Shown here: positions 3,983 to 40,984 of the stretch, one piece after another
Position numbering within the stretch: position 1 is the stretch's first letter
How the letters are laid out: each line of letters begins with the position of its first letter
IMG/VR virus record: IMGVR_UViG_2541047851_000005
Direction: 5' to 3' (one strand)
Length of the DNA: 40,984 nt
Source of the DNA: a virus
Lineage: Duplodnaviria > Heunggongvirae > Uroviricota > Caudoviricetes
Made by a program: the position numbers and the translations under genes
The notes under the pieces: generated by a model
What the model was told of the DNA's origin: nothing
Seen by the model: the letters and a program-made list of their open reading frames with translations, nothing else
The model's database searches: none

Positions 3983-4765
3983 CTATTGCCCTCCCACGTA
4001 CGGCTTCCTCAGATCAGTTGTACTGGTGTGTCGGCGGGCACACCCTTTGAAATATTCGTCACTAATGGCAACATCTTTAGAACCCACGAAAGCAACAGCG
4101 GCAACTTCACGTGCTGTTTTCAGTCTTGTCGCCGCCCAGGCAGTGTCTCGCATTTCGCCAGGAAGTCCATCGCTTTCTGATGTAAGATCGCCGGAGAAAT
4201 TCTCTGTACTGTGTTGCGCTGCGTTCTCCCCCCTGTTTCCCGTTTCCTGTAAACCGAGGTTTTGGATAAATAGCGGCTTATTGGGAATATCTGCTCCGTT
4301 CCGGTCTTTTGCCAGACGGGCATTGGCATTATCCATCGCAATTTTCACCGCTTTTGCGGTGGCTGCCAGCGTTTCACTGGGGCTGTCAGTGGCACTGGTT
4401 AGCTGAACGAGTCCTTTTTTGTTCAGGCTGGCATCATAGATATCCAGATTTTCACGTGCTGTACGCTGTGCTGATGCCCCGGCAATTTTAATTTCGCTGA
4501 GGTTATTTTTTATCAGCAGCGCGTTATTGCTCATAATGGCTTTAATGGACAGTGCAAGCTGGTTTAATTTTGTTTTATCCGGTTGAATACCGGCTTCTTC
4601 CAGCGTGTTTAATAACTCCGCCTGAACAATATTAAACCAGTCCATGCCGGGCCATGTGATAATATTATTCCCGTCACCTTCTGAAAACCAGCGAACGATA
4701 GCACTACGCTGGGCGGATACGGGCGGCATGACGGTTACGCCGCTGTCGTTATCAATATAAAACAT
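3983..4765 (-). CDS. S: Tail fibre protein S (constant part plus proximal variable part), terminated by an amber codon
   Basis: 260-aa ORF; N-terminal 166 aa constant region reads through gix (FIQNLGLQETG) into G; ends at TAG 3983-85, much shorter than the ~500 aa I recall for Mu S. Confidence 0.75.
   Translation of the reverse strand: MFYIDNDSGVTVMPPVSAQRSAIVRWFSEGDGNNIITWPGMDWFNIVQAELLNTLEEAGIQPDKTKLNQLALSIKAIMSNNALLIKNNLSEIKIAGASAQRTARENLDIYDASLNKKGLVQLTSATDSPSETLAATAKAVKIAMDNANARLAKDRNGADIPNKPLFIQNLGLQETGNRGENAAQHSTENFSGDLTSESDGLPGEMRDTAWAATRLKTAREVAAVAFVGSKDVAISDEYFKGCARRHTSTTDLRKPYVGGQ
4244..4269. repeat. gix recombination site (right in window)
   Basis: TTCCTGTAAACCGAGGTTTTGGATAA inside the S coding sequence; inverted relative to 1566-1591. 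Confidence 0.85.
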
Positions 4766-25259: not shown

Positions 25260-25761
25260 CCGCCCCCCTGATATTCCAGATTGCCATTTCCACTTCGCGA
25301 CGGTTCATCAGTCCTTTCCATTTATGGCCTGCGGCAAACACCCAGCGGGCCATCTGGTCACGCGCTCCGGCGTAATCACCGGCATTGAGTTTTTTCAGCA
25401 GCGTTGATTTACTGAATGCGGTAACACCGGTGTTGAAAATAAACGTTGCCAGCGCCGTTTTCTGATATGGCGTCAGCGGCACCCTGACAAGACGATCGAT
25501 TGCCGCATAAACCGGTTTTAAATCACTGTCGAGGAGAGCCATACACTCCGCATGGCTGTAACGGCGCATTTCGATATCCGGCCCGGTATGTCCCACACAG
25601 ACCGTAAGCACACCGGCAATATCGCGGTAAGGCATATAAGCGATATTTTCCAGATGGATCAGAGACTGACGGGTCATTTCCTGATAACCACCCACACTGC
25701 CACCGGCAATCGTTGCCGCCAGCAGTGCGGCTTTCAGTTTTTTTGGTATCCCCGCCATCAT
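25243..25761 (-). CDS. lys: SAR endolysin (lysozyme) Lys
   Basis: 172-aa ORF with N-terminal signal-anchor-release segment and lysozyme-like body; first late gene after C. Confidence 0.88.
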   Translation of the reverse strand: MMAGIPKKLKAALLAATIAGGSVGGYQEMTRQSLIHLENIAYMPYRDIAGVLTVCVGHTGPDIEMRRYSHAECMALLDSDLKPVYAAIDRLVRVPLTPYQKTALATFIFNTGVTAFSKSTLLKKLNAGDYAGARDQMARWVFAAGHKWKGLMNRREVEMAIWNIRGADDLRQ

Positions 25762-25852
25762 GCTTCCCTGAAAAAATGCTCTGATGGCAGTCTAAAAAAT
25801 CAGATGGCAGGTGCGGGATTATGGTGACAGGAAATAACCGGCAGGATGCCGG

Positions 25853-26275
25853 TTATTTCTGGCTTTCAGGTGAGAACAGATCAGGCTGATGACGTCGTGT
25901 ATGCAGCTTTCTCTGGCGGGCAATAATCTGGTAGATCTGCGGCTGGGACAGGCGATACTGGCGACGCAGTTCTTCCATGTTACGACCATTGAACTGGCAG
26001 TAAAGCAAATCGTCGCGTAACGCGGTCAGGATCGTATCGCCGCAGGGGATGTAAAACTGCCGTCCGCCCAGAAAACAGGACAGGGCAACGGCCTGTTTAC
26101 GGGCAAGCTCACGGGGATTGCTGACGTTCTGGCGTTTCAGTTCGTTTTCCAGAACATCAATCAGATCAACCACCGAACGGGGCCAGCGTGATTCCAGTTC
26201 CGGGGCCGGGATGTTATCAATATGTCCGATTAACTGGCGAATTGCCGGATCGTGTTCAAATAAATCATGCTGCAT
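25853..26275 (-). CDS. C: Late transcription activator C
   Basis: 140-aa ORF, Mor/C family, paralogous to mor 0.4 kb upstream; matches recalled Mu C length. Confidence 0.9.
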   Translation of the reverse strand: MQHDLFEHDPAIRQLIGHIDNIPAPELESRWPRSVVDLIDVLENELKRQNVSNPRELARKQAVALSCFLGGRQFYIPCGDTILTALRDDLLYCQFNGRNMEELRRQYRLSQPQIYQIIARQRKLHTRRHQPDLFSPESQK

Positions 26276-26387
26276 ATTTTCCCCCGGTTAACAGACAGAA
26301 AGATACACCACGGCACTGATGGTTATCAGAACCACAAGGGCAATCACTTTTATCGCATTAATCAGCGTGGACGGCCCGAAACATTCA

Positions 26388-26618
26388 TCACTGAATTTTC
26401 TGTACACAATATTTTTCCTTATAACGTTGACAGTGGTGAAGAATTTCCGGCATATCAACTGACTGCCAGCCTTTCATGTAATAACTGCCGTGGGTGCCAT
26501 CATGACCGGTATAGTCGCGGGGCGCAGGCCGTGGCCCACCGGCGACACGGTGCAAAACCTCCTGACGCAGCCGCTCACGTCTGCCAAGATGAAAGGATGC
26601 ATTCCAGCCTTTACCCAT
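26388..26618 (-). CDS. Small ORF between mor and C (Mu gp18-like)
   Basis: 76-aa ORF; position only. Confidence 0.3.
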   Translation of the reverse strand: MGKGWNASFHLGRRERLRQEVLHRVAGGPRPAPRDYTGHDGTHGSYYMKGWQSVDMPEILHHCQRYKEKYCVQKIQ

Positions 26619-26695
26619 GATGATTTCCCCCGGTACGGTTATTCATCACAGGATATTGAGGACGTAAAAAAAGCCGGATTAACCGGCTTTACTGT

Positions 26696-27085
26696 TTACA
26701 GAAGTGAGGGCTGGTACTGGCGGTATTTCAGCCGTCGCATCCGGCGAATGGCCTTGTAAACCGTATTGAAAGTGACACCATAACGGGTGGTCAGTTCGCT
26801 GACGTTGCGACCGTTAAAATCATTCCAGATACGCAAATCCCGAATCAGCGAGTCCAGAACCTGACCGCGTGGAATGTAGACCTGACCGCCGCCCAGATGC
26901 TTACAGATAGCCACAACAATCTCCAGTGAATGGGCAGGATCAACGCCCAGCCGGGACAATTCCCCGCGTAGTAAATCGTTCAGCTCCGCCAGCAGTGCCG
27001 GAAAGCGTGACGTATCCTCTGCGGGATTGTCAAGATGTGCCAGGATGGTGTCATCCTGCAAATCACCAAATAAATCTTCCATCAT
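26696..27085 (-). CDS. mor: Middle operon regulator Mor
   Basis: 129-aa ORF, Mor/C family (shared ...GGxxxYIPxG...DxLLY/IRD... core with C). Confidence 0.9.
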   Translation of the reverse strand: MMEDLFGDLQDDTILAHLDNPAEDTSRFPALLAELNDLLRGELSRLGVDPAHSLEIVVAICKHLGGGQVYIPRGQVLDSLIRDLRIWNDFNGRNVSELTTRYGVTFNTVYKAIRRMRRLKYRQYQPSLL

Positions 27086-27633
27086 TGTGCCATCCTCCGT
27101 GTCTTTCTGACATGGGCATAAGCCGCCGTCATGGCATCATAGCCGCGCAGTTCACGCCCGGACGGACTGACCGGCAACGGAAGCCCGTGACGGGAAAAGG
27201 CTTCACGAATACAGCGGATGTGCCACTGTTTCAGGGTTTCAAGCACAACCTGCAACGATTCTCCGTGGCACCACGCCAGCGTGGAAACACCCTGTCCGCC
27301 ATTACGTTTCGCTGTCAGGCGCTGAACATATCTGTCCAGCGCCACATCACCACCATCGGTAATAAAACCGTCTTCTGCCATCTGCTGCCAGATTTTATAC
27401 ACCTTCTCACGGGGCGTGACATGCCCCTTAAACCGACGGCGTGGGTGTTTATTCTGCTTCTTAAAGCCGCGTTCTTTCATGGCATTGAGCACCTGTTCCA
27501 GTTGCGTAACCGTCAGCTCGCGGCAACTGATTTTGCCCGTTTTCTGCATCAGAAAAGCGCGGTAAGTGTCGTCGTCGAGTTGTAGCTCCCGACGGGCGAC
27601 ATGGATTAATTTAATCAGGGATGTGCGACTCAT
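27082..27633 (-). CDS. GemA-like protein (Mu gp16 family)
   Basis: 183-aa ORF immediately upstream of mor, 4-nt overlap; Mu gp16 position and size. Confidence 0.6.
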   Translation of the reverse strand: MSRTSLIKLIHVARRELQLDDDTYRAFLMQKTGKISCRELTVTQLEQVLNAMKERGFKKQNKHPRRRFKGHVTPREKVYKIWQQMAEDGFITDGGDVALDRYVQRLTAKRNGGQGVSTLAWCHGESLQVVLETLKQWHIRCIREAFSRHGLPLPVSPSGRELRGYDAMTAAYAHVRKTRRMAQ

Positions 27634-27684
27634 GATCGTACCTCCGGAAAGAGGCGGTGCTGCAACACCGCCTGAATTTACACA

Positions 27685-27987
27685 TCAGTTCGTAAGGCCC
27701 AGATGCTGACGGATCTCAAAAGCCTCAAACACATGAGCGTCAGTAACAATATCCTGGTCTGATAACCCCAGCCTGCGGCGGATGTACTCCTCGCGGGCTG
27801 TTTCATTTTGCAGTGCCACTACTGTTTCCAGACGATTCATTTCGCGGTTGATAATGTCACGGACTTCTCTGGCGGTGAGATTATGCTTAATACCATATTC
27901 AACGATAGCGCGAACACGTTCCAGCATCCCTTTTTCAGCCATGACGTTATCAATATTAAGGGGAGTAAATTTATCTTCATTGTTCAT
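27685..27987 (-). CDS. Early-region hypothetical protein
   Basis: 100-aa ORF, packed in early operon. Confidence 0.5.
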   Translation of the reverse strand: MNNEDKFTPLNIDNVMAEKGMLERVRAIVEYGIKHNLTAREVRDIINREMNRLETVVALQNETAREEYIRRRLGLSDQDIVTDAHVFEAFEIRQHLGLTN

Positions 27988-28307
27988 TTTGCGGCCCTCA
28001 GAATAAATTCAGGATAAAATTTCAGACTCATTTGCCGTAACACATCCAGTGCAGCAACGGCTGCTGATTTATCGTTGCCATCAGCAATAGCGCGGAGATT
28101 TTCAATAATCCAGTGAGGACTCAGTGACTCAGCAATAATGCCAAACCGGTACGCCATGACCTCATCAATAGCTTTTTCATGAGACGTCTCATATACAAAA
28201 TTCACAAAGTCATGCACTTCTTTTTTCGGCAAACCACCGGCAATCAGCAGGGCGGCAAGCTCTTCTGATTTTGAAAATACACCATTATTCATATCACTCA
28301 CCTTCAC
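27984..28307 (-). CDS. Early-region hypothetical protein
   Basis: 107-aa ORF, 4-nt overlap with next gene. Confidence 0.5.
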   Translation of the reverse strand: MKVSDMNNGVFSKSEELAALLIAGGLPKKEVHDFVNFVYETSHEKAIDEVMAYRFGIIAESLSPHWIIENLRAIADGNDKSAAVAALDVLRQMSLKFYPEFILRAAK

Positions 28308-28476
28308 AATTCATGCACGCCGTGTCATCGCCCATATCGCAGTGGTTGCATTTCTGCCCGCCACAATGAGGGCACTCTTTCAGATATTCAGGGGATTCAT
28401 TACCGCAGGTCGGGCATTCCTGTTTCACCGTGGTAAATTTCCCCAGCCACGAATACGATGTTTCACTGTTTTCCAT
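28294..28476 (-). CDS. Small zinc-ribbon protein
   Basis: 60-aa ORF with CPTCG...CPHCGG...CNHC...CMNC. Confidence 0.5.
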   Translation of the reverse strand: MENSETSYSWLGKFTTVKQECPTCGNESPEYLKECPHCGGQKCNHCDMGDDTACMNCEGE

Positions 28477-29032
28477 TAGTTACCTCCGCCTGTTTTTGCG
28501 CCCGGATAAATTCGTCAGAAAGGATTTCAGTCATGCGGCCTTGCGCGGGTGTCATCCCCGTCATGACGTAAATCACATCACCAACACGGAACCACTGGAG
28601 CGGGCCGAATATTGTTGCGCTGAAATCCAGTCCCAGTGCGGGTAAGAGAGCGTCAGTACGGGCATAAGTGACCGGAATATTCTCCTGCCATATTTTCGCC
28701 AGCTCTTTTGACTGCTCCCGCAGATGTGCAGGAATGCGCGATGTTCTTGGCCTGCAACTGTTACCTGATGCGGAGCGTTGTACAGTCCACAACTCCGGCG
28801 AGAAAGGTCGCTCATTCCCCGGAAAATTCACGCCATGAAAATGACGCCCACCAATACCTGTGCTGAATACTGACCGGCAACCACAACCCAGAACCTTATC
28901 AAGATGGCGGGCTTCTTCGCGTAGTTTCAGGCAGTCCGCCATAAACTGGTCCCATGCCAGCAGTGCTGCGGGATTTGACGTTTTAAAAAACATCACGCCA
29001 CCTCCTGCACCGCTGCGGGAGCCGGAGAACAA
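28463..29032 (-). CDS. Early-region hypothetical protein
   Basis: 189-aa ORF; true start may be internal (MFFKTSNP). Confidence 0.45.
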   Translation of the reverse strand: MFSGSRSGAGGGVMFFKTSNPAALLAWDQFMADCLKLREEARHLDKVLGCGCRSVFSTGIGGRHFHGVNFPGNERPFSPELWTVQRSASGNSCRPRTSRIPAHLREQSKELAKIWQENIPVTYARTDALLPALGLDFSATIFGPLQWFRVGDVIYVMTGMTPAQGRMTEILSDEFIRAQKQAEVTNGKQ

Positions 29033-29523
29033 TCAAGAATGAGATAACGCAGTACATGGTCGGTGATATTCCAGGCGCTTGAACTGCAAATAAAACGCCC
29101 CAGCCGGATATCGATATAAGCCATCACAAAACGGGGCATTCCCTGTTCGCACATTCTGTTATCCACCTCAGCAACAATGTGGACTGACTCACAGGTCAGC
29201 ACGCCCGTCGCAAACTCTTTTGCCAGCGCGGGGATGGTATTACCTTCCACCCAGGGTAATGAGCGACGCCAGTTGCACCACACCGCATCATCAACAGCAG
29301 GCTGCTCAGTTGCGTTTCGTCTTACAGGCGGCGTCGGACGCGGGCGCGGAACGTCATAAAATCCGTTGCATTCGGTGAGCACTCCGGCATCAACCGCATC
29401 ACGCAGGAAATACACCATTGACGAGGGCAGCATATTCATTTTTTCAGCCAGAACTCCGCAGGTCAGGCGTCCGTAAGCCCGTAATAATGTGCTGACACCA
29501 TTCAGAATTTTTGCATCAACCAT
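28993..29523 (-). CDS. Early-region hypothetical protein
   Basis: 176-aa ORF downstream of gam. Confidence 0.5.
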   Translation of the reverse strand: MVDAKILNGVSTLLRAYGRLTCGVLAEKMNMLPSSMVYFLRDAVDAGVLTECNGFYDVPRPRPTPPVRRNATEQPAVDDAVWCNWRRSLPWVEGNTIPALAKEFATGVLTCESVHIVAEVDNRMCEQGMPRFVMAYIDIRLGRFICSSSAWNITDHVLRYLILDCSPAPAAVQEVA

Positions 29524-29621
29524 GTTTTATTCCTCAGTAATCTGTTTCAGGCGCGAGCAATCCCCTGACGCATCGCGCCATAATTAAAAGAATGTGAATT
29601 AATTAAATATTAATGGTGGTA

Positions 29622-30146
29622 TTAAATACCGGCTTCCTGTTCAAATGGAATAATGGAAAAATCTTCAATTCCCGATTTAACCGTAATTCCGGCAACACCT
29701 GCGACGGCTTTTGGTTCCAGTAAAATCGCCTCCTTGTTGATTTCCTGCTTCGTGCGAATAAAGCGTTGCAGGCCAAGACGCTCCAGCGTTTCCATCACTG
29801 CATCCATACCACGAATACTTACTGATGGTGGACGGACCCGCCACGATACATCACCGGTGACAAGATTCGCCGTCTTCACTTTGCCGCCGTTCGTCAGTTC
29901 GTCGCGGTTCGCTTCACACCATCCCTTAACGCCTTTTGAAAGGGTTTCAATATCGGTTTTAATCGGTGCAATCCGGGCTGCAAATTTCTCCGTAATTTCC
30001 GCGATGGCATCATTCATTTCCGTTTCCAGACGTGATGCTTCGCGCTGTAAATCCCCGATGCGTTTAATATCGGTAATCACCGCATCGCGGTTTTGTGGCA
30101 CATAAGCCGCTGCGGCACTTTTGATGCGTTTTGCTGGTTTAGCCAT
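29622..30146 (-). CDS. gam: Gam, host-nuclease inhibitor (DNA end-binding)
   Basis: 174-aa ORF MAKPAKRIKSAAAAYVPQNRD...; matches recalled Mu Gam length and N-terminus. Confidence 0.88.
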   Translation of the reverse strand: MAKPAKRIKSAAAAYVPQNRDAVITDIKRIGDLQREASRLETEMNDAIAEITEKFAARIAPIKTDIETLSKGVKGWCEANRDELTNGGKVKTANLVTGDVSWRVRPPSVSIRGMDAVMETLERLGLQRFIRTKQEINKEAILLEPKAVAGVAGITVKSGIEDFSIIPFEQEAGI

Positions 30147-30165
30147 AAATTAAAGCTCCTGTTAA

Positions 30166-30465
30166 TTAATATCCGCTGTATACAATGCTGGATACAGCTC
30201 GATTGCTTAATTCCATCTTTCGGGCAATGACATGAATATCCAGCCCTTCTTTATAAAGTTCACGACATAAATATTTGTCGTGTTCACTGATTCGGTATAC
30301 ACACAATGATATTCCGTGTCTTCTGGCATGTGCCCGGAGGGCGGTTGTGGCGACTTTCAGTTTTTCCGCCATTTCTTCAACGGTCATTTTTCCAACGTTG
30401 GCTTCGATAAATTCCCGGTCTTCGCGTGACCAGCGCTTACGATTACACTTCATGTCAGCTACCAT
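30166..30465 (-). CDS. Early-region hypothetical protein
   Basis: 99-aa ORF; possible HTH-like segment. Confidence 0.45.
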   Translation of the reverse strand: MVADMKCNRKRWSREDREFIEANVGKMTVEEMAEKLKVATTALRAHARRHGISLCVYRISEHDKYLCRELYKEGLDIHVIARKMELSNRAVSSIVYSGY

Positions 30466-30909
30466 TCAGTACAACAGAGGCTCGCGCAGTGATGCCGGAA
30501 TATGCCGTAGCGATAACTGAACCGCTTTCAGGGCAAGCGAGGAATAACAGCAGCGCGCCCAGCCTTTTGCCATTAACCGGTAATCGCGCCAGATACGCTG
30601 CCACATTTCACGGGCTTTAGGGTCTGATGCGCAGATGTATTCCCGGTCCATGACGTACTCCCATAAATCCACGTTGAACGCACCGCCAAATGCAATGGCG
30701 CGGGATATGCTTTCGCCGCAATAACGCGCACAGATGCTGTAATGGTCGAAAGCAATCAGGTAAGTCTTTTCACCACAACCATCAACTTTCCGGGCGCAAA
30801 TAAACTCGCGTAATTCACCACCGTTGTTATTGCGTTCCTGAATTCGGATTAATGCCTGAATTTCATTTCGGATTTTGACGTTCATTGTCAGCGTTCCTTT
30901 CAGTGGCAT
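30466..30909 (-). CDS. Early-region hypothetical protein
   Basis: 147-aa ORF; start may be internal (MNVKIRNE). Confidence 0.45.
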   Translation of the reverse strand: MPLKGTLTMNVKIRNEIQALIRIQERNNNGGELREFICARKVDGCGEKTYLIAFDHYSICARYCGESISRAIAFGGAFNVDLWEYVMDREYICASDPKAREMWQRIWRDYRLMAKGWARCCYSSLALKAVQLSLRHIPASLREPLLY

Positions 30910-31163
30910 GTTTTTTCAACAGCCATTTCAGTGACACGGCCACCGGTGATGACACCATCGTTTTTCAAAATCTCAATAGCTTCATGGGCTGACTCATTAA
31001 TTATTTTCTGGCTTTTATTAAGCACCAGTAACGCCACCATGCCAGCAAGTGTACCCTCATCACCGTCCAGTTCCGCACTACCGTCCACCGCAATGCTGGT
31101 GAGCAAATTCCGTCCTTTAATTCCAGATACTGTATTTTTAATTTCAATAATTACTTTTGCCAT
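30900..31163 (-). CDS. Early-region hypothetical protein
   Basis: 87-aa ORF. Confidence 0.45.
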   Translation of the reverse strand: MAKVIIEIKNTVSGIKGRNLLTSIAVDGSAELDGDEGTLAGMVALLVLNKSQKIINESAHEAIEILKNDGVITGGRVTEMAVEKTCH

Positions 31164-31174
31164 TTTATTTCACC

Positions 31175-31429
31175 TTATTGATTCTGAATAACCGCGCTGG
31201 CTTTTACCTTCGCGCCTTTTACCTGCTTAAAGAAAACCGCGCTGCACCACGGACAACATGTCAGGGAATCCCGAATTTCCTTTTCGGGTGAGCATTGCGT
31301 CATAATCTGTTCGCCACATCCGGGGCATTTATATGTCGTCAGCGGCACCCCGTGGCACTGACAGTGTTTAACCCATTCAATATATTTTTCAGCTTTAATA
31401 CACATCGTTATCTCCAGATAATCTGGCAA
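31175..31429 (-). CDS. Small zinc-ribbon protein
   Basis: 84-aa ORF with CxxC...CxxC...CCPWC. Confidence 0.5.
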
Positions 31430-31635
31430 CCATTAAGACGGGCCGTCCATACAGAACGGGCCACCCCGGACTTATGCTCCATAATTCTGACCGCGCTTTT
31501 TACCAGTTCCACCGGTGGGTAAGTGATTTCAAGAATCGGACGCGCCACGCCGAGATATGATTCATTTACATGACTCCCGCGCGCCTGTAACCAGTTCTGC
31601 GCATCCGTTGCCATTTTTATATTTCGGGCCATCAT
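31408..31635 (-). CDS. kil: Kil-like host-killing protein
   Basis: 75-aa ORF immediately downstream of B, where Mu kil lies; assignment by position and size. Confidence 0.45.
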
Positions 31636-31650
31636 AATTTCTTCTCCTTC

Positions 31651-32589
31651 TTAATTACGCAGCAGCGTTGAAATATCAACGTCCAGGTCTAATTCACGGA
31701 AAGCCTGACGCAGATAATCTTCGTTAACACGCTCACCTTTACCGTGAGCCGTCATGGCGGCAAGGCGAAGTGAATGATTCAGAATGCGAAGCGCACCTGG
31801 TTTCTGCGCAATCTGCTGTAATAACTCCAGTTCATTTTCGCCGTTAATCTGCCAGGCATCCGCAATAGCTTTTACATCGGCTTTTTTGGTTTTATTAATT
31901 GCAGTGCGCTTTGCAATACGGGAAAACAGACGGGCAAATTCAACCGTTCTGTTACCCCCCGTCATATTTGAATAAACCCGGTGATTTCCCATCAGCACAA
32001 GGCCAGTGCGGGTTGATTCCTGTAACAGGCGGAGTTCTTCCAGAACTTCGGCACCAAGATGATCAGCTTCGTCGATGATAACCAGCCCCTGTGTACCTTC
32101 AAGGCGACGTCGCAGGGCACGGGAGAGTGGCCCTTTACGGCGTGGTGCGTCATTCATTCCCAGCTCAAACGCCAGTTCAGTAAGACATTCCAGAACGCTG
32201 GCACAGGATGGCGTAATGGTGATCATCCAGACATTGTTATTGGTGCGGCGATATTCACGGGCCGCTTCGGTTTTGCCCACACCAGGATTGCCACATACAA
32301 CAGCAATACTTTCAGTCAGGCTGGCAAAACGCATACTTGTCCAGATTTGTTTTACCGTCTGCGTTTCCACAAAGCGGGGCGGTTCAGGTAGTTCTGCCAC
32401 TGCATGATATTTTTCCAGCCAGCGTTGCAGCATTTGTGAAACACGCTCGTTATCCCCGTTGTACTTATCATTGATAAAACTACTGATAGTTCCGGTAGAA
32501 AGTCCGCTCTCAAGAGCAATTTGTTTAAAGGTGGTTTCTTCATTTTCTACAAGCGTGCGCAGTCCTGCGCGAATATCGGAAATATTCAT
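31651..32589 (-). CDS. B: Transposition ATPase MuB
   Basis: 312-aa ORF with Walker A GNPGVGKT and Walker B IIDEAD; directly downstream of the transposase. Confidence 0.95.
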   Translation of the reverse strand: MNISDIRAGLRTLVENEETTFKQIALESGLSTGTISSFINDKYNGDNERVSQMLQRWLEKYHAVAELPEPPRFVETQTVKQIWTSMRFASLTESIAVVCGNPGVGKTEAAREYRRTNNNVWMITITPSCASVLECLTELAFELGMNDAPRRKGPLSRALRRRLEGTQGLVIIDEADHLGAEVLEELRLLQESTRTGLVLMGNHRVYSNMTGGNRTVEFARLFSRIAKRTAINKTKKADVKAIADAWQINGENELELLQQIAQKPGALRILNHSLRLAAMTAHGKGERVNEDYLRQAFRELDLDVDISTLLRN

Positions 32590-32627
32590 CTGAATAACCT
32601 CGTAATTAAATTTTATTTAAACGTTAA

Positions 32628-34634
32628 TTAAATGGCTTTTTTACGTCTGTTCTGTTCCAGAATATCCAGCGAATGATTCAGATATTCATCACGCTCAGTT
32701 TCGTATTCATCATCACGCTCCTGATTCTTCACCCGTTCCGTATTACCGGAAGGCCGGAAAATACCAACAATTCGTGATTCTGGTGCTGCTGGTTCGGCTA
32801 TCTGCGGCAGCAGTTCAGCAACTTCCAGCGCGTCCATTTGTTTCTGCGCCTTAATGGCTGCTTTAGTTGCAGATTTCAGTTGTTTCTGGCGGCGGCGATA
32901 TTCACGGCCTGCCGCAGCATCATTAAACGCAACAGGTGCCAGACATTCCGCTTCACAAATAAACCGACCGTCCAGGGTGTAGCAATAAACCGTGCTGTGT
33001 AACTGCTGCGGATCAAATCTGACCACAACTTTTTTCACTCCGGCATTCATTAACGCCATGTTGTAATAAACGTTTTTCGCGCCTTTAAGGGAGCCGCCAA
33101 CTTTAAGCGCGAACTCGCCTTTACGTGAAACGTTCACCGCCTCGGCAGGCAGCAACAGCATCCGTTTTTGCTCTTCGGTAGGCTTACGCACAATCGTTCT
33201 GGCGTATTCACGCTCGAAAACATCATCAAACGAGAGTTTGCCCCCGCACATTTCTGTTTCACGGCCTGTTCTGGCATTAAACATCGCCACACCTTCGGCA
33301 AGGGTTTTCAGAAACAGCTCTGCATCAACAGCGCGGTCGCCATAGTTATCAGGTTTTGCCTGCGGATTAGGCCCCGTATATGCGCCAGCCAGTGCCGGAT
33401 GCTTATCAACGTATTCCTCAAGCCCACCAACACCGAAAGCACGTTCAACAGGTTTTGCCTGGCCCCAGCCTTTACCGGCAACAACGCTTGTCCAGTGCAT
33501 TTTCGCCCCCATCAGTAAAAACAGTCCTTTTGGATCGTCCTCTTTTACCTTAAAGCGGTAGCGATTGGGCGCGCCTCCCGTCAGCCATTTATTCGCAGCA
33601 CCACGGGTGTTATCAATGGTGATGTGAAAATCCTCCGGGATACCGTAGCGAGTCACAACATCCATGAACGAGAGGCGAATTGAATCAATGTTCTCGCTCA
33701 CATCGCAGCGCCAGCCCAGAATTTTTCGGGTTTTCACATCCTGCCAGAACCATGTTTTCGGGCGGATCACATCACCGTTAAACCAGCGTACAAAGACGTT
33801 ATGCAGATAACCGTCGCCGTTGATCCACTGCATGGCGTCCAGGTGTTCCACAGTTCGTTGTTGTGCCGGTATCAGATGCATCAGTGCATGTTCACCTTCA
33901 CGGCAGGCAACAACCATTGCCTCGTCCAGTTGCTGAATCCGGCGAAAGGCCGTGGCACGGGAGGGAATACTCCAGCCATGCTCGCGGGCTGCCAGTTCCA
34001 GACGCTCATAACATTTGCGGAAGGCGGGTTTTTCCGGTCGCAGATAATCTGCAATCAGAAACTGCCAGGCATCCTCGTCAAATTCACTTTTGTGAACATT
34101 GCGACGGGATGCACCACGTCCATCAACAAGTGCAGCCGCCCAGTCAGGCTTCGCAAACTTCTGTACCTGGTAATACTTGTCCCGCAAAGTGGATGCGCTG
34201 ACCTGGTAATGCCCTGCAACGGTCGCAAAAGCCGTTTTTGTTGAAATCCCCTGGTTCAGCATTTCGTCTGCGGCCTGAACCGCAGGCAACCATTTTTCAG
34301 CAAGTCTGCGCTGGGAATCGCTGGCGTTATCCCATTTGCTCCACAGTGCCTCACGATCATAATCATGGGCTTCCAGCGTGGGGCGGGCGATTTCAAAACG
34401 GCCCTGGCTTGTTTCGATCTCTCCTTGTCTAAGCAACAACGCAGCTTGCGTTTCCTTTGGTAAAGATGAGATATGAAACTCATAGGCTACTCCTCTTACC
34501 CCGTGTATCTGTCGAAACACCCACTGTTCTAACCTTGCTTTACGAGAGATCGCGCTAGAGGATTTTGGAAGACCTATCAGCCCTTCTAATTTCTTTGCAG
34601 AAAACCAATCATTACATTGTGGTTGCATTTTCAA
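32628..34634 (-). CDS. A: DDE transposase MuA (D108-type N-terminal domain)
   Basis: 668-aa ORF; most of the protein matches recalled MuA, but the first ~65 aa ([24 protein letters not shown]...) differ from Mu. Confidence 0.95.
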
Positions 34635-34849
34635 TACCTCGAAGGCCAGATGTCTCGTGGCTCAACTCCCAATGCATCGGCAATGATTCTTTCCCCCCGA
34701 GGGTAAGGTTTATCCAAGGCATTTTTTACCGTAGAGATAGAGAGACCGTTCTCACGACCAAGAGCTGCTAGGCTTTTTCCTCTTTTGCGCAGATCAGCAA
34801 CAATGTCGTATCTACTTTTGTCTTCACATTTACTTTTCTTTATCGCCAT
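34631..34849 (-). CDS. ner: Ner-like DNA-binding regulator
   Basis: ORF 34631..34858 (TTG); probable ATG start at 34847-49 (MAIKKSK...), ~72 aa; C-terminus ...IWPSRY as in Ner; overlaps the A start. Confidence 0.8.
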
Positions 34850-34878
34850 AAAATGCAATCCTCACAAGCTACGCCATC

Positions 34879-34901
34879 AGCTACGCCGCAAGGTAGCTGA
34901 T
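34879..34901. promoter_or_regulatory. Putative Ner operator: inverted repeat TCAGCTAC-N8-GTAGCTGA with an extra AGCTAC direct repeat upstream
   Basis: Seen directly 30-50 bp upstream of the ner start; resembles the inverted-repeat operator type I recall for D108 Ner. Confidence 0.45.
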
Positions 34902-34926
34902 AAGGTATGCAGCAATGCTAGTGTGA

Positions 34927-35676
34927 AAAGAGGGACTGACCGGCGAAGGCGCTGCACGGCAGAATGCCATCAATGCTTCGGTTGCACAGGGCCTTGAGGC
35001 GTCCCTGCGCTGGCTGACGGAGCTGACAACGTCACTTGCCACCACAAACTACGCGATTACCCGGGTAAACGACAGGGTCAGTTCACTGGTCAGTGATACT
35101 GCCAGGCTGGCGCATTATTCCGCAGATACACGGGAGCAGTTACTCATCCTGGCCGATCAGGTTCACCATAAACTGAATCATCTTGAAGAAAAACTCCACC
35201 GTGTTGACCAGGTTCAGCGGGCGCAGTTACATCTTGAGCAGATATTCTCATGGTGGAGCGCCGGGCGATATGCGTCATTTTCCCCTGCCGGACGTTGTTA
35301 TGTGGCGCTTGAAGAGCTTCGCTGGGGCGCGTTTGGTGATGTGATACGTCAGGGCGAAACAGGCCAGGTTAACCAGCTACTGGATATTCTCAGACATAAA
35401 GCATTAACGCAGATGGCACAGGAGAGTGGCGGTAGTGCAACCGTGCGTCTGAACACTCTGGACTGGCTTGGTGGTCAGGGCCGGGAGCAGGCAGATAACG
35501 AGTGGCATGACGCGATTAACTGGCTGGGAGACTGGTGCAGTGAAGAGCAGCATCCGGTGATCTGGTCAACCACGCAGGCTGCAGAACACTTACCGGTTCG
35601 CATGCCTCGCCTCTGCTCTGCAGAACGCCTCTCTGAAAGTATGGTCGATGAAATATTTCAGAAGGGGGCTGCATGA
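34927..35676 (+). pseudogene. 5'-truncated ORF (about 250 codons, no start codon) translationally coupled to patatin gene; unknown function
   Basis: Frame open from TGA at 34924-26 to stop at 35674-76 with no ATG/GTG/TTG before GTG 35302; stop overlaps the patatin ATG (ATGA). Coiled-coil-like and Trp-rich C-terminus. Confidence 0.55.
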
Positions 35677-36743
35677 GTACAGAAATGAAAACGGGGCTGG
35701 TGCTGTCCGGTGGCGGGGCGGTGGGCGCTTATCAGGCGGGAGTGGTTAAGGCACTGGCAGAGTGTGGTACACAGATCAGCATGGTTTCAGGGGCCAGCAT
35801 TGGCGCATTCAATGGTGCCATTATCGCGGCCTCTCCCGATCTGTCAGAAGCTGCCGTACGCCTGGAGGCGCTCTGGGATCATCTGGGGAATAATCAGGTG
35901 CTGTCGGTAAACCGATTGGTTTACTTTTCATTGCTGAAAAAATTGTTCCAGGCAATGAACCTCTGCCAGATCCCCGGACGTGCAGGAGCACTGCTTACGA
36001 CGCTTCTTCGCCATATATCGATACTCAACGGGTTTGACAATCTGATGGCTCAGCCGTTGTTGTCAGATGAGCCCCTGACAGCGCTGTTGGATCATTATCT
36101 TGATACTGATGCTCTGGCAGACGGGCTACCGCTGTATGTGTCGCTGTACCCCACAGAAGGGGGCATGCAGGATATTATTGACTGCATTCGTGCTGAACTG
36201 GGTGCCGGAACCACGAAAAACGCCGTTTTTCAGCATATCCAGAGCCTGCCCCGCGGACAGCAGAAAGAGGCTCTGCTTGCGTCAGCCGCGCTGCCCCTGC
36301 TGTTCCGTCCCCGTGAGGTTCAGGGGACAATGTTCGGTGATGGTGGTATGGGAGGATGGCGAAATATGCAGGGAAATACCCCTGTGACGCCTCTGGTCGA
36401 TGCCGGATGCAATATGGTGATTGTGACGCATCTGAGTGACGGTTCTTTATGGGATCGCCAGGCTTTTCCGGACACCACAATCCTTGAGATCCGTCCCCGG
36501 AAAAGGCTGAAATATGCAGGTGATGGTGACAACAGCGGCGGTCTGCTCAGTTTCACGTTGGCACATACCGACGCCTGGCGTCAGCAGGGCTATGAAGACA
36601 CGATGCTGACGATGGAGCATATCCGGAAACCGCTGGCAGCACGTCAGGTACTGTCCCGGTCAGAAACGGTGTTGCAGAAAAGTCTGGAGATAACGGAAGA
36701 GGCAGATTTGGCACTGAGAAACGCGATGGCCCGGATTAAATAA
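35673..36743 (+). CDS. Patatin-like phospholipase
   Basis: 356-aa ORF with oxyanion-hole SGGGAVGAY, nucleophile motif GASIG (GxSxG) and catalytic Asp motif DGG (MFGDGGMGG); AGGGGG Shine-Dalgarno upstream. Confidence 0.9.
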   Translation: MSTEMKTGLVLSGGGAVGAYQAGVVKALAECGTQISMVSGASIGAFNGAIIAASPDLSEAAVRLEALWDHLGNNQVLSVNRLVYFSLLKKLFQAMNLCQIPGRAGALLTTLLRHISILNGFDNLMAQPLLSDEPLTALLDHYLDTDALADGLPLYVSLYPTEGGMQDIIDCIRAELGAGTTKNAVFQHIQSLPRGQQKEALLASAALPLLFRPREVQGTMFGDGGMGGWRNMQGNTPVTPLVDAGCNMVIVTHLSDGSLWDRQAFPDTTILEIRPRKRLKYAGDGDNSGGLLSFTLAHTDAWRQQGYEDTMLTMEHIRKPLAARQVLSRSETVLQKSLEITEEADLALRNAMARIK

Positions 36744-36757
36744 AGACGCCCCAAAGA

Positions 36758-36786
36758 AACGCCACCGCCTGTGGTGGTGTTTTTCC
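36758..36786 (+). terminator. Possible weak intrinsic terminator after patatin gene
   Basis: CCACC-gcctgt-GGTGG stem followed by TGTTTTT. Confidence 0.35.
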
Positions 36787-37073
36787 TGGCTGGTGTTATT
36801 GAAAATATTTTCAGATATATATTACCTGAGAGAAAGTTTTACCCCTCACCTGTCAATTCACTCACTGGAAATTTAATTATGCAATTACCTGTAAAGTTAT
36901 TAATGAGCCTTATATCTCTGGTCAGCGTTATTGCACGTGCCGGGAAATATAAAAATTACATCCGGGATGAAATAAAATACTGGCGATATACATCATACAA
37001 GGGGGGGGAATTTCCGGAAGGTTTCACTGATGAGAAATTTTCCAGCGCCATTTACAACGGAAGAATATTTACA

Positions 37074-37556
37074 ATGAAACGTTTACATACCCTGATGTTA
37101 TTTCTGGCGGTTCTGTTTACTGGCTTTAACGTGGAAGCAGCGAGCGTGAAACAAGCGCTCAGCTGCGACCCAAACGCCCGGGCTGAACAACCTGGAGCGT
37201 GTCCAACAACGTACGAGTTGTACGAAGGTGACGCTGCCTACAAAGCTGCGCTTGACAAAGCATTAAAACCGGTCGGACTGAGCGGCATGTTCGGTAAAGG
37301 CGGGTATATGGATGGCCCTGGCGGAAACGTAACGCCAGTAACCATTAACGGTACAGTCTGGCTCCAGGGCGACGGTTGCAAAGCCAATACCTGCGGCTGG
37401 GACTTTATCGTAACACTCTATAACCCAAAAACCCATGAAGTCGTTGGCTACCGCTACTTTGGTTTAGATGACCCGGCCTACCTGGTTTGGTTCGGCGAAA
37501 TTGGCGTGCATGAATTCGCGTATCTGGTGAAAAACTACGTAGCTGCGGTTAACTAA
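37074..37556 (+). CDS. Ivy-family (lysozyme inhibitor)-like periplasmic protein
   Basis: Start moved to internal ATG at 37074 (MKRLHTLMLFLAVLFTGFNVEAAS signal peptide). Mature part has a CKANTC loop resembling the CKPHDC loop of Ivy. Upstream 300 bp is AT-rich and non-coding-like. Confidence 0.5.
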   Translation: MKRLHTLMLFLAVLFTGFNVEAASVKQALSCDPNARAEQPGACPTTYELYEGDAAYKAALDKALKPVGLSGMFGKGGYMDGPGGNVTPVTINGTVWLQGDGCKANTCGWDFIVTLYNPKTHEVVGYRYFGLDDPAYLVWFGEIGVHEFAYLVKNYVAAVN

Positions 37557-37571
37557 TTTAAGGAGTCTGTC

Positions 37572-37982
37572 ATGAAAACTTTTATCAAAACTTTACTCGT
37601 TGCTGTAACTATTCTGTTCTCTGTCTTCGCTACGGCGAAACAAGTAAAACTGCCAAACAACATCAAATACGTTAATACTACAGAGGCGTTTTCCTGTACT
37701 GAGATTGACGGTATGAATTGCCAGACGAAGAATCCGTTTAACTATAAAGATAACAGCTATGTTTTCGTGCTTGAACGTGGTGGTGCCTGGTGTTACGACT
37801 ACACTGTCTCGGTACTTAACCTGAAAACCGGGAAAGCACAGATGCTCGAATACAAAGACAACCAGCTGTGCTCAGGTAGCAACAAACCGTTCTTCGAAAT
37901 CAAAAATGGCGTACCGACGGTAGGAGTCATCGACACATCCGGAAAACCTGTCGTTGTGGCTCTGGACAAACTTAAAACCTGA
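37572..37982 (+). CDS. Small secreted Cys-containing protein, unknown function
   Basis: 136-aa ORF with signal peptide MKTFIKTLLVAVTILFSVFATA; GGAG Shine-Dalgarno; 16 nt after the Ivy-like gene. Confidence 0.6.
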   Translation: MKTFIKTLLVAVTILFSVFATAKQVKLPNNIKYVNTTEAFSCTEIDGMNCQTKNPFNYKDNSYVFVLERGGAWCYDYTVSVLNLKTGKAQMLEYKDNQLCSGSNKPFFEIKNGVPTVGVIDTSGKPVVVALDKLKT

Positions 37983-38124
37983 GGAGTAAACCATGCGTTT
38001 CTCTGCACATTATTAATATCAAAGGTAAATACAGCCCCAGCCATTGTTGCCGGAAAGCCGCTTAATGCGTGGCTCGCCAGTGAAAGGCTTCTCAGACAAT
38101 AAACCTCATTCATTTCACCCGTCA

Positions 38125-38158
38125 GGCCGCGTCTTCTCCGGGAGACGTGGCTTTTTTC
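38125..38158 (+). terminator. Intrinsic terminator
   Basis: GCCGCGTCT...AGACGTGGC hairpin followed by TTTTTT. Confidence 0.5.
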
Positions 38159-38202
38159 ATTTATTACACCAGTAAATCTTAACCACCGATAAGGAGCAAA
38201 GT

Positions 38203-39024
38203 ATGCGATTAGCAAGTCGTTTTGGTTATGCTGCAAACCAGATACGTCGTGACCGTCCACTGACACATGAAGAGCTGATGCACCATGTGCCGGGGATTTT
38301 CGGGGAAGAGAAACACACGTCCCGAAGCCAGAACTATACGTACATCCCCACCATCACCGTACTGGAAAGCCTGCAGCGGGAAGGCTTTCAGCCATTCTTC
38401 GCCTGCCAGACCCGTGTGCGCGACCCGGGCCGCCGGGGATACACCAAACACATGCTGCGTCTGCGGCGGGCCGGAGAGATAAACGGAGAGCATGTCCCTG
38501 AAATTATTCTGCTCAACTCTCATGACGGTACCTCCAGCTACCAGATGCTGCCGGGTTACTTCAGGTTCGTCTGCCAGAACGGCTGCGTCTGTGGTCAGTC
38601 TCTGGGGGAAGTGCGTGTTCCACACCGGGGAGACGTAGTGGAGAAAGTTATTGAAGGGGCTTACGAGGTGGTGGGCGTGTTTGACCGGATAGAGGAGAAG
38701 CGTGATGCCATGCAGTCGCTGGTCCTGCCGCCACCGGCACGCCAGGCGCTGGCACAGGCGGCACTGACTTACCGTTATGGTGACGAACATCAGCCCGTCA
38801 CCACCGCCGACATTCTGACGCCACGACGCCGGGAGGATTACGGTAAGGACCTGTGGAGTGCTTATCAGACCATCCAGGAGAATATGCTGAAAGGCGGGAT
38901 TTCCGGTCGCAGTGCAAAAGGAAAACGTATCCATACCCGGGCCATTCACAGCATTGATACCGACATTAAGCTCAACCGTGCATTGTGGGTGATGGCAGAA
39001 ACGATGCTGGAGAGCCTGCGCTGA
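38203..39024 (+). CDS. YfjQ/YafZ-family protein (DUF932) of CP4-like islands
   Basis: 273-aa ORF MRLASRFGYAANQIRRDRPLT...; matches recalled YafZ/YfjQ family; AGGAG Shine-Dalgarno. Confidence 0.75.
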   Translation: MRLASRFGYAANQIRRDRPLTHEELMHHVPGIFGEEKHTSRSQNYTYIPTITVLESLQREGFQPFFACQTRVRDPGRRGYTKHMLRLRRAGEINGEHVPEIILLNSHDGTSSYQMLPGYFRFVCQNGCVCGQSLGEVRVPHRGDVVEKVIEGAYEVVGVFDRIEEKRDAMQSLVLPPPARQALAQAALTYRYGDEHQPVTTADILTPRRREDYGKDLWSAYQTIQENMLKGGISGRSAKGKRIHTRAIHSIDTDIKLNRALWVMAETMLESLR

Positions 39025-39286
39025 TGCAATCTGTCCCTGAAGGCGTGATTCAGGCACCAGAATCACCCGACGCCCCGGAGAGCTCAGTCTGTGCAGACTG
39101 AGTACAGGCAATGGCATCTGGCCATCCGTCTGTGACCGGAACGGTTACGCGTACGGCTGTCCGGAATTTCAGCCGAATATCATTCATCCCTGACATTACC
39201 GGGTCTCACGGTCAGTGATGAACGTGATGTTGTCAGCCCCCGGCCTTTACTCCCTCTCATTTATTCACATTACAAGGATTTCATAC

Positions 39287-39760
39287 ATGAAAACATTGTC
39301 TCAGAACACCACCTCTTCGGCCTGTGCACCGGAGACTGGCCTGCAACAACTGGTTGCCACCATAGTCCCTGATGAACAGCGCATCAGCTTCTGGCCGCAG
39401 CATTTTGGCCTCATTCCACAGTGGGTGACCCTGGAGCCCCGGGTCTTCGGCTGGATGGACCGTCTGTATGAAGACTACTGCGGTGGTATCTGGAATCTGT
39501 ACACCCTGAACAACGGTGGCGCATTTATGGCACCCGAACCGGATGACGATGATGACGAAACATGGGTACTGTTCAATGCCATGAACGGTAACCGCGCTGA
39601 AATGAGCCCGGAAGCCGCCGGCATTGCTGCCTGTCTGATGACGTACAGTCATCACGCCTGCCGTACGGAGTGTTATGCCATGACGGTTCATTATTACCGT
39701 CTGCGGGATTACGCCCTGCAACATCCGGAATACGACGCCATTATGCGCATCATTGACTGA
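39287..39760 (+). CDS. Antirestriction protein (KlcA/ArdB family, YfjX/YafX-like)
   Basis: Start at ATG 39287 (MKTLSQNTTSSACAPETG...); acidic DDDDDE stretch; matches recalled YfjX/YafX. Confidence 0.8.
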   Translation: MKTLSQNTTSSACAPETGLQQLVATIVPDEQRISFWPQHFGLIPQWVTLEPRVFGWMDRLYEDYCGGIWNLYTLNNGGAFMAPEPDDDDDETWVLFNAMNGNRAEMSPEAAGIAACLMTYSHHACRTECYAMTVHYYRLRDYALQHPEYDAIMRIID

Positions 39761-39775
39761 AAGGGGGCAGGAACA

Positions 39776-40252
39776 ATGCAACAGATTTCCTTTCTGCCCG
39801 GAGAGATGACGCCCGGCGAGCGCAGTCTCATTCTGCGGGCCCTGAAAACCCTGGACCGTCATCTTCATGAACCCGGTGTGGCCTTCACCTCCACCCGTGC
39901 GGCACGGGAATGGCTGATTCTGAACATGGCGGGACTGGAGCGTGAAGAATTCCGGGTGCTATATCTGAATAACCAGAATCAGCTGATTGCCGGTGAAACC
40001 CTCTTCACCGGCACCATCAACCGCACGGAAGTCCATCCCCGGGAAGTGATTAAATGCGCCCTGTATCACAATGCCGCAGCCGTGGTGCTGGCACACAATC
40101 ACCCGTCCGGTGAAGTCACCCCCAGTAAGGCAGACCGCCTTATCACGGAACGTCTGGTACAGGCACTGGCCCTGGTGGATATCCGGGTACCGGACCATCT
40201 GATAGTTGGTGGCAGTCAGGTTTTCTCTTTTGCGGAACACGGTCTGCTTTAA
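39776..40252 (+). CDS. RadC-like JAB-domain protein (YeeS/YfjY/YkfG family)
   Basis: 158-aa ORF with HNHPSG metal-binding motif. Confidence 0.85.
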   Translation: MQQISFLPGEMTPGERSLILRALKTLDRHLHEPGVAFTSTRAAREWLILNMAGLEREEFRVLYLNNQNQLIAGETLFTGTINRTEVHPREVIKCALYHNAAAVVLAHNHPSGEVTPSKADRLITERLVQALALVDIRVPDHLIVGGSQVFSFAEHGLL

Positions 40253-40320
40253 CCCGTCACCGTCACAACCACATCACACCTGTTTTCACTTTTATCTTCT
40301 GTCTTCAGAGGTATCACACT

Positions 40321-40542
40321 ATGAAAATCATCACCCGTGGTGAAGCCATGCGTATTCACCGTCAGCATCCGGCATCCCGTCTTTTTCCGTTCTGCACCGG
40401 TAAGTACCGCTGGCACGGCAGTGCTGAGACGTATACCGGTCGTGAAGTACAGGATATTCCCGGTGTGCTGGCCGTGTTTGCTGAACGCCGTAAGGACAGT
40501 TTTGGCCCGTATGTCCGGCTGATGAGCGTCACTCTGAACTGA
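40321..40542 (+). CDS. DUF987 protein (YeeT/YpjJ/YkfH family)
   Basis: 73-aa ORF MKIITRGEAMRIHRQHPASRLFPFCTGKYRWHGSAE... Confidence 0.75.
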   Translation: MKIITRGEAMRIHRQHPASRLFPFCTGKYRWHGSAETYTGREVQDIPGVLAVFAERRKDSFGPYVRLMSVTLN

Positions 40543-40615
40543 GTCAGGAGAAATGATGAGCCGAATTATCGCTGCCACCGGACCATTCTTAACTGATTTC
40601 TGTGAGGACTTTATC

Positions 40616-40984
40616 GTGTCAGACACACTGCCCGGGACAACGCATCCCGACGACAATCACGACCGCCTCTGGTGGGGACTGCCCTGCACCGTGACGCCCT
40701 GTTTCGGGGCACGTCTGGTGCAGAAGGGTAACCGGTTGCATTACCTTGCCGACCGCGCCGGTATCAGAGGCCGGTTCAGCGATGCAGATGCATACCACCT
40801 GGACCAGGCCTTTCCGCTGCTGATGAAACAACTGGAACTCATGCTCACCAGCGGTGAACTGAATCCCCGCCATCAGCATACCGTGACACTGTATGCGAAG
40901 GGGCTGACCTGTGAAGCCGACACCCTCGGCTCCTGTGGTTACGTTTATCTGGCTGTTTATCCGACGCCCGAAACGAAAACGTAA
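40616..40984 (+). CDS. cbeA: CbeA/YeeU-family antitoxin (partner toxin CbtA expected just beyond window end)
   Basis: Start at GTG 40616 (VSDTLPGTTHPDDNHDR...), 122 aa, ends at TAA 40982-84; matches recalled YeeU. Confidence 0.8.
   Translation: MSDTLPGTTHPDDNHDRLWWGLPCTVTPCFGARLVQKGNRLHYLADRAGIRGRFSDADAYHLDQAFPLLMKQLELMLTSGELNPRHQHTVTLYAKGLTCEADTLGSCGYVYLAVYPTPETKT

Follow-up and report, generated by a model that had tools for sequence, protein, structure and literature searches.

A three-gene dynamin, RdcB-family and patatin operon of Escherichia coli islands, interrupted in one copy by a Mu-like prophage and a junction-spanning deletion

Within the 40,984-nucleotide stretch of DNA recorded as IMG/VR virus IMGVR_UViG_2541047851_000005 (the window, analysed over its whole length), a frame that lacks a start codon opens exactly where a Mu-like prophage ends and runs into the gene for a patatin-like phospholipase. 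We find that these two frames are what is left, on this side of the prophage, of an operon carried on mobile islands of Escherichia coli and encoding, in order, a dynamin-like GTPase, a protein of the YjcZ/RdcB family and the phospholipase, and that the copy in the window was inactivated by the prophage together with a deletion across one of its junctions. The identity of both open reading frames (ORFs) and the history of their inactivation, taken jointly, we regard as settled. The best explanation as a whole, in which the intact operon would in addition work as a phospholipase gated by the GTPase and its RdcB-like partner, we put at a probability of roughly 0.8.

The remnant at the prophage junction

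An earlier reading made from the letters alone (the sequence-only reading) had described a start-less frame of about 250 codons, coupled through an ATGA overlap to a patatin gene with three catalytic signatures, and these observations hold. The frame runs from 34927 to a TGA at 35674–35676 through 249 open codons, the first ATG, GTG or TTG being an internal GTG at 35302; the patatin ATG (35673–35675) overlaps that stop, with an AAGGGGG run four bases upstream. The features of the two genes are as follows.

34927–35676, + strand: RdcB/YjcZ-family gene, 3′ fragment (codons 53–301 plus stop), from its translation, the PF13990 match and alignment to the intact allele
35662–35676, + strand: gene junction, a Shine-Dalgarno-like AAGGGGG run (35662–35668) followed by the ATGA stop/start overlap, from sequence
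35673–36743, + strand: intact patatin-like phospholipase gene, 356 aa, third and last gene of the operon (PF01734, E = 4e-25)
35709–35717, + strand: glycine-rich oxyanion loop G13-G14-G15, from sequence; invariant in alignments A1 and A4
35790–35804, + strand: GASIG nucleophile elbow G40-A-S42-I-G, with catalytic Ser42 at 35796–35798; G40, S42, I43 and G44 invariant (A1, A4)
36339–36347, + strand: D223-G-G, with the catalytic Asp of the Ser-Asp dyad, from sequence; invariant (A1, A4)
36760–36779, + strand: terminator-like hairpin and T-run directly after the patatin stop, from a pattern scan

Whereas the sequence-only reading could not recognise the upstream protein, Pfam assigns the fragment to YjcZ (PF13990) at E = 9e-65 and 219 bits (cut-off 27) over profile positions 32–272 of 272, so the frame is not a chance one. 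The uninterrupted locus, which that reading had proposed to look for, is present in E. coli 536 and Nissle, where the full upstream gene encodes 301 aa (8846–9751 of L001, the 536 locus), matches the profile from position 1 to 272 at 241 bits and is labelled by RefSeq, in thousands of genomes, as a "diguanylate cyclase regulator RdcB family protein". Alignment of the window to the 536 locus begins only at L001 9001 (window 34926), and the window therefore holds rdcB-like codons 53–301 and none of the dynamin gene. Among the 52 N-terminal residues gone from the fragment is an invariant EKFxVDxAN motif, whose conserved positions in the alignment are E23, K24, F25, V27, D28, A30 and N31.

The second gene is a patatin by every measure applied: PF01734 scores 89.6 bits (cut-off 27.7), the GGG, GASIG and DGG signatures are all present, and G13–G15, S42 and D223 are invariant across 39 homologues (down to 46% identity). 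Its DNA is 100% identical to the alleles in E. coli 536 and Nissle 1917, and a 1875-bp match at 100% identity occurs in 30 genomes among the matches listed. The hairpin at 36760–36779 marks the end of the operon.

The prophage and its junction with the host are delimited as follows.

1–34925, − strand: Mu-like prophage, with Mom, Com, Gin, tail and head genes, Mor, Gam, Kil, MuB, MuA and Ner (ORFs, Pfam families)
34925–34927, no strand: deletion junction between Mu-like prophage DNA and the host rdcB-like gene, with a 2-nt AA overlap

Phage homology extends to 34927 and host homology starts at 34926, bearing out the earlier statement that the frame opens at the prophage junction; the TGA that closes the frame on its upstream side (34924–34926) ends at the same place. 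The prophage is recognisably Mu-like, with MuA, MuB and Ner, Gam, Mor, Gin, Com and Mom, and with a Mu-type right terminus against host DNA. That far end could be read on scaffold KE701229.1 (GCA_000459615.1), which is 100% identical to window 25302–40984: it lies 115 bp past window position 1, where the terminus TGAAGCGGCGCACGAAAAACGCG abuts host DNA at L001 6889, nucleotide 425 of the dynamin gene, or about codon 142. Beyond this far junction come a 144-aa gene and TonB-receptor and ABC-transporter genes, as in the DNA flanking the operon in 536. At the near junction, by contrast, the intact left end and repressor expected of such a phage are missing: intact phage copies (L003, L004) continue for 977 bp past the break point, through the repressor gene and the left end (attL). 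From the two sides of the prophage together, 2,111 bp of host DNA is missing (dynamin codons ~143–794 and rdcB-like codons 1–52).

From a far junction inside the dynamin gene and a near junction short of 977 bp of phage, we infer that a Mu-like phage transposed into dynamin codon ~142 and that a single deletion of ~3.1 kb then crossed the left junction. The sequence-only reading had offered prophage insertion or an adjacent deletion as the cause of inactivation; both occurred. It had also taken the system to consist of two genes, missing the dynamin-like GTPase because most of that gene is deleted and its 5′ stump lies beyond the far end of the prophage. The absence of any difference between the patatin gene and intact alleles (100% identity) suggests that this happened recently; the junction was found in none of the complete E. 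coli genomes of the collection. Over 31651–34925 the prophage, now without repressor gene and attL, keeps Ner, MuA, MuB and Kil intact; it is unable to transpose any longer.

Two other accounts of this junction were weighed. The frame opens exactly at the phage/host boundary, as it might had the prophage entered the start-less ORF itself and carried the missing 5′ end to its other side. This can be dismissed with near certainty, since the far prophage end adjoins the dynamin gene, 2.1 kb upstream of the ORF, and not the rdcB-like gene, the near side lacks the terminal repressor and attL segment, and host DNA is absent from both sides. It is also very hard to credit that the remnant is a working two-gene unit, made of the patatin and a truncated RdcB-like protein such as the 124 aa beginning at GTG 35302. 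Gene callers do call the 124-aa ORF, and the patatin is intact with its own Shine-Dalgarno-like run; but the fragment lacks the invariant N-terminal motif and, from 35302, the long helix as well, all that is left of the obligatory GTPase partner is a stump of 142 codons, about 35 kb off and lacking G3 and G4, and a crude consensus scan of the + strand from the junction to the patatin ATG found no σ70-like promoter site. Many unrelated breakages yield the same 124-aa ORF, which marks it as a by-product of pseudogenisation. Of the operon, the source genome keeps a dynamin stump beyond the prophage, an rdcB-like fragment lacking a start and a patatin gene that is intact but has no detectable promoter; the module there is dead.

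The intact operon, its spread and its setting

In E. coli 536 and Nissle the intact operon (ECP_RS10380–10390 in 536) encodes a dynamin-like GTPase of 794 aa, the RdcB-like protein of 301 aa and the patatin of 356 aa, each stop overlapping the next start. The dynamin can be aligned with RdcA over its entire length, at 34% identity (E = 5e-122), and that alignment shows motifs G1–G4 in the 536 protein; the RdcB-like protein is 31% identical to RdcB over its full length. Counting as present any genome with at least 80% of the 4.35-kb operon, we find it in 2,443 of 5,426 complete E. coli genomes (~45%), in up to five copies per genome. It is among the commonest uncharacterised accessory operons of the species, and its novelty, already diminished by a published description (PMC12922286), had been over-rated by the sequence-only reading.

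Scanning a single genome per species yielded 80 loci with patatin homologues of 31–95% identity, and gene order was scored in the 60 species-representative loci whose upstream sequence exceeded 3.5 kb. In 52 of these, dynamin, RdcB-like and patatin genes abut on one strand, and three more differ by a spacer or by overlapping ORF calls. In ~55 of the 60, then, the RdcB-like gene lies directly downstream of an RdcA-type dynamin and the triad is kept; a 4-nt stop/start overlap is the commonest rdcB-like/patatin arrangement across species. This co-conservation bears out the earlier proposal that the two visible genes form one operon, which that reading would have given up had the partner proved an unrelated gene not conserved with the patatin. 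The triad is spread over many bacterial phyla, Proteobacteria, Cyanobacteria and Firmicutes among them; its loci come from Enterobacterales, Pseudomonas, Acinetobacter, Moraxellaceae, Burkholderiales, Methylococcales, Chromatiales, cyanobacteria, Paenibacillus (Firmicutes), Sulfurovum and others.

The real exceptions are one cyanobacterial and three Synergistaceae loci, in which the patatin matches end near query residue 310–330, before the C-terminal helix, and an Acinetobacter locus with an unrelated 413-aa protein at the dynamin position. The latter, from Acinetobacter sp. KCTC 92772 (L034 4852–9089), encodes a WYL/WCX regulator, the 413-aa protein, YjcZ and patatin in that order; this third party matches nothing in Pfam and does not resemble the dynamin whose place it takes. 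A patatin without the long C-terminal helix characterises a clade of Synergistaceae metagenome-assembled genomes (L058, L063, L066–L068, L070–L072, L074 and L075, with L060 from Neomegalonema), whose matches cover query residues ~8–311 (to 323–324 in L060 and L063) and whose loci have no dynamin or YjcZ genes upstream. The C-terminal helix may be what links the lipase to its partners. In an AlphaFold 2 (AF2) model of the patatin (pTM 0.75) it is 60 residues long (296–355) and accompanies a canonical patatin fold with a low-confidence insert at residues 83–126; the nearest solved folds are PlpD, CapV/CapE, VipD (VipD–Rab5, PDB 4kyi) and ExoU, VipD being a relative detectable by both sequence and fold.

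A conserved fourth gene was sought and rejected, none emerging from all-against-all clustering of 197 flanking ORFs, in which the largest cluster, of WYL regulators, covers 8 of 63 loci. Seven of the 104 closest flanking ORFs at those 63 loci encode WYL/WCX transcription factors, the most recurrent neighbour, and four of the seven abut the dynamin gene on the same strand. Other neighbours include a PDC-S17 candidate, type I restriction–modification (R-M) genes, an SNF2 helicase, integrases and YeeP-like GTPases. Downstream of the patatin, 43–61 bp away and on the same strand, Erwinia, Pantoea and one Pseudomonas species have a JukA (YaaW) homologue (E down to 2e-58; L008 9114–9935, L009 9132–9593 and L015 9125–9859). 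JukA is the sensor of the anti-jumbo-phage Juk system, and its presence may reflect a four-gene variant or a neighbouring defence gene.

Within E. coli the rdcB-like gene is itself frequently damaged. Around position 10001 of loci L086–L095 it has been broken many times independently, by frameshifts, by insertion sequences (IS) and by deletions joining it to Ag43-like or other genes; a C-terminal RdcB-like fragment of the same 124 aa is found among called genes in at least 376 index blocks. The operon in this species seems to decay often.

The sequence-only reading had placed the genes at the variable cargo position of a CP4-like island, and this stands. In the window, genes for DUF932/YfjQ, antirestriction, RadC/YeeS, YeeT and CbeA follow the patatin gene, in keeping with the CP4-44/CP4-57-type backbone (YeeP/YfjP-like GTPase, cargo, DUF932, antirestriction, RadC/YeeS, YeeT, CbeA, CbtA). 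The operon occupies the variable, CP4-44-type slot between the YeeP-like GTPase gene and the YfjQ/antirestriction/YeeS/CbeA block, a slot that Ag43 occupies or shares in other strains (L088, L094); by annotation, the island carrying the operon in strain 536 adjoins yeeA-sbmC-dacD. The 144-aa "hypothetical protein" upstream of the 536 dynamin (L001 5813–6247), which flanks the prophage in the source strain too, comes from a copy of the island backbone's 290-aa YeeP/YfjP-like GTPase gene (L088 2881–3753) that has lost ~430 bp internally. Two ORFs between the patatin and DUF932 genes (36882–37556 and 37572–37982) have no Pfam, NCBIfam or PADLOC match and no homologue in 80 other-species loci, being unconserved beyond Escherichia. 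An Rfam scan of the whole window gave zero matches.

Two further observations concern the prophage. Its invertible tail-fibre (G) segment (1597–4239) contains no long ORFs and has no close match: relative to intact phage copies the flanks are 99–100% identical and in register while the block itself is 62% identical, its substitutions spread evenly over all 12 types and without bias by codon position. All 2,643 of its 2,643 positions carry either the forward or the inverted G-segment base (compared with L096), each orientation alone accounting for 62–64%. Because every position fits one orientation, the block is a per-base G(+)/G(−) consensus chimera and therefore an assembly artefact, which implies that inversion by Gin (918–1511) was active in the sequenced culture. 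The mom gene (− strand, 1–726) is split into ORFs 472–726 and 1–435; other phage copies have a single Mom of 235–245 aa.

Possible functions of the intact operon

By analogy with RdcA/RdcB and DgcE, the dynamin-like GTPase and its RdcB-like partner would form a switch that gates the phospholipase; activity released from this gate would degrade membrane lipid, and the most likely role would be an abortive-infection or membrane-damage response to phage. To a gated-phospholipase defence function of this kind we give an even chance. Defence precedent exists for each component type, dynamin-like GTPases and patatin effectors alike. A 2026 transcriptomic study of E. coli MP1 described homologous dynamin/RdcB-family/phospholipase operons on two islands, flagged them as a putative dynamin defence system and found the operon among the most up-regulated genes in Kapi1 lysogens (PMC12922286). 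The idea of defence is thus already known; what is combined here is an RdcAB-type switch, dynamin-based defence and a patatin effector. A broader proposal is that the GTPase/YjcZ pair could be a general nucleotide-state switch with varied outputs (DgcE in the core genome, patatin on islands) and the triad a new anti-phage system, its lipase firing when infection perturbs the GTP pool or the membrane; this we hold tentatively, at somewhat less than even odds.

The main competitor, which we consider unlikely, holds that the triad is a module for membrane remodelling, repair or vesiculation, in which the phospholipase provides local lipid turnover and any effects on phage are secondary. Bacterial dynamins have indeed been reported in membrane surveillance and vesicle formation (PMC12922286; Millman preprint), DynA of Bacillus subtilis and LeoABC of enterotoxigenic E. 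coli (ETEC) are reported to reshape or seal membrane, many triad loci sit among housekeeping genes, and the triad is conserved across very wide phylogenetic distances. Yet the closest characterised relative, RdcA, is described as a soluble regulator and not a remodeller (PMC6510439), the E. coli triad lies on mobile islands, WYL regulators, JukA, R-M genes and PDC candidates recur beside it, and it is induced in lysogens (PMC12922286). Highly unlikely is a reading that takes the family name at face value, with the RdcB-like protein and the dynamin regulating a diguanylate cyclase, and hence cyclic di-GMP (c-di-GMP) and biofilm, and the patatin an unrelated passenger. The PF13990 match and the homology to RdcA/RdcB suit it, as do GGDEF domains in 2 of 104 immediate neighbours; but identity to RdcA/RdcB is just 31–34%, the dynamin scores far below the equivalog cut-off (551 against 1146 bits), E. 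coli retains the core rdcAB at its own locus, and the patatin does not behave like a passenger, since in ~55 of 60 loci from different phyla it adjoins the rdcB-like gene, often overlapping it by 4 nt.

Several results weigh against our preferred explanation, that of a GTPase/RdcB-gated lipase in an operon now broken in the window. Of the searches that the sequence-only reading had suggested, those of Pfam identified families for both proteins; among the defence-system hidden Markov models (HMMs) of PADLOC v2, the RdcB-like protein has no model, the patatin is matched weakly by CBASS (cyclic-oligonucleotide-based antiphage signalling system) effector models (best PDLC00758, E = 9.5e-5, residues 9–70), and the dynamin gives a weak partial match to LeoBC (E = 4e-6) and none to LeoA. 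A structure prediction of the partner, also suggested there, was uninformative: the AF2 model of the RdcB-like protein returned generic helix matches only among solved folds, and no solved structure was found for the YjcZ family. Plain housekeeping genes make up many triad neighbourhoods, and the frequent, independent breakage of the rdcB-like gene in E. coli could indicate weak selection. The promoter scan being a crude consensus search, some expression of the orphan patatin is possible. In the literature consulted (on YjcZ/RdcB and DefensePredictor, a domain-centric Nucleic Acids Research (NAR) paper and the Millman preprint) we found no functional test of the triad, and two leads, PMC13064650 and PMC7696260, proved false.

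Should the GTPase and RdcB-like protein gate the lipase, the RdcA/RdcB "GTPase partner system" would reach beyond c-di-GMP signalling, and bacterial dynamins in defence would gain a testable model; should the broader switch proposal be true, nearly half of E. coli genomes, and several phyla, would carry the anti-phage system. The copy in the window is of value only as a well-resolved Mu insertion with a junction-spanning deletion.

Relation to known systems

Membership of the Juk system was rejected, neither the window nor the E. coli locus containing a JukA/YaaW homologue. With Eleos (LeoA/LeoBC) the island operon shares a dynamin-family GTPase and a setting in defence or pathogenicity islands. 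Whereas Eleos consists of a pair of successive dynamin-like proteins, whose GTPase motifs are needed for defence in the tested system (Millman et al. 2022), the operon has one dynamin, a non-dynamin YjcZ protein and a phospholipase. With a single dynamin, a weak LeoBC match, no LeoA and a second gene unmatched in PADLOC, it was rejected as an Eleos system.

To type I CBASS the operon is related through its effector, which shares the patatin fold and Ser-Asp dyad of CapV/CapE, among its nearest solved structures, and perhaps also through the logic of a sensor gating a membrane-destroying phospholipase. The island patatin differs from the CapV/CapE effectors in its 60-residue C-terminal helix. 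The sequence-only reading had held that this is no CD-NTase (cGAS/DncV-like nucleotidyltransferase) system and hence no canonical CBASS, and we concur: Pfam, PADLOC and the annotation of the intact locus show no CD-NTase or nucleotide cyclase in the operon, and the effector models, in addition, match weakly and only at the N terminus, so that CBASS is excluded. CapV/CapE, VipD and ExoU all need a bound activator to become active. The Legionella protein VipD, the relative by sequence and fold noted above, is activated by binding of the GTPase Rab5 (PDB 4kyi). VipD is a secreted effector responding to a small GTPase of the host, whereas here the candidate activator, inferred by comparison, would be the co-encoded dynamin-like GTPase with its YjcZ partner.

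The closest parallel is RdcA/RdcB of E. coli K-12 (YjdA/YjcZ, CrfC), which has the same order, a dynamin-like GTPase of ~750–800 aa and then a YjcZ-family protein of ~300 aa with overlapping stop and start, and to which the island pair is homologous over full length (34% and 31% identity). RdcA binds RdcB and switches on the diguanylate cyclase DgcE in a manner that depends on RdcA's nucleotide state, with the nucleotide-free form apparently active (Pfiffer et al. 2019, PMC6510439). The island dynamin is nevertheless a paralogue of RdcA and not its equivalog: against the NCBIfam CrfC/RdcA model (NF007368), K-12 RdcA scores 1597 bits, and the island protein falls short of the cut-off. The K-12 pair lies at the core phn-proP locus, whereas the operon described here is on mobile islands. 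Because the island operon carries, as its third gene, a co-conserved patatin missing from K-12 rdcAB, its output enzyme is presumably a phospholipase rather than DgcE.

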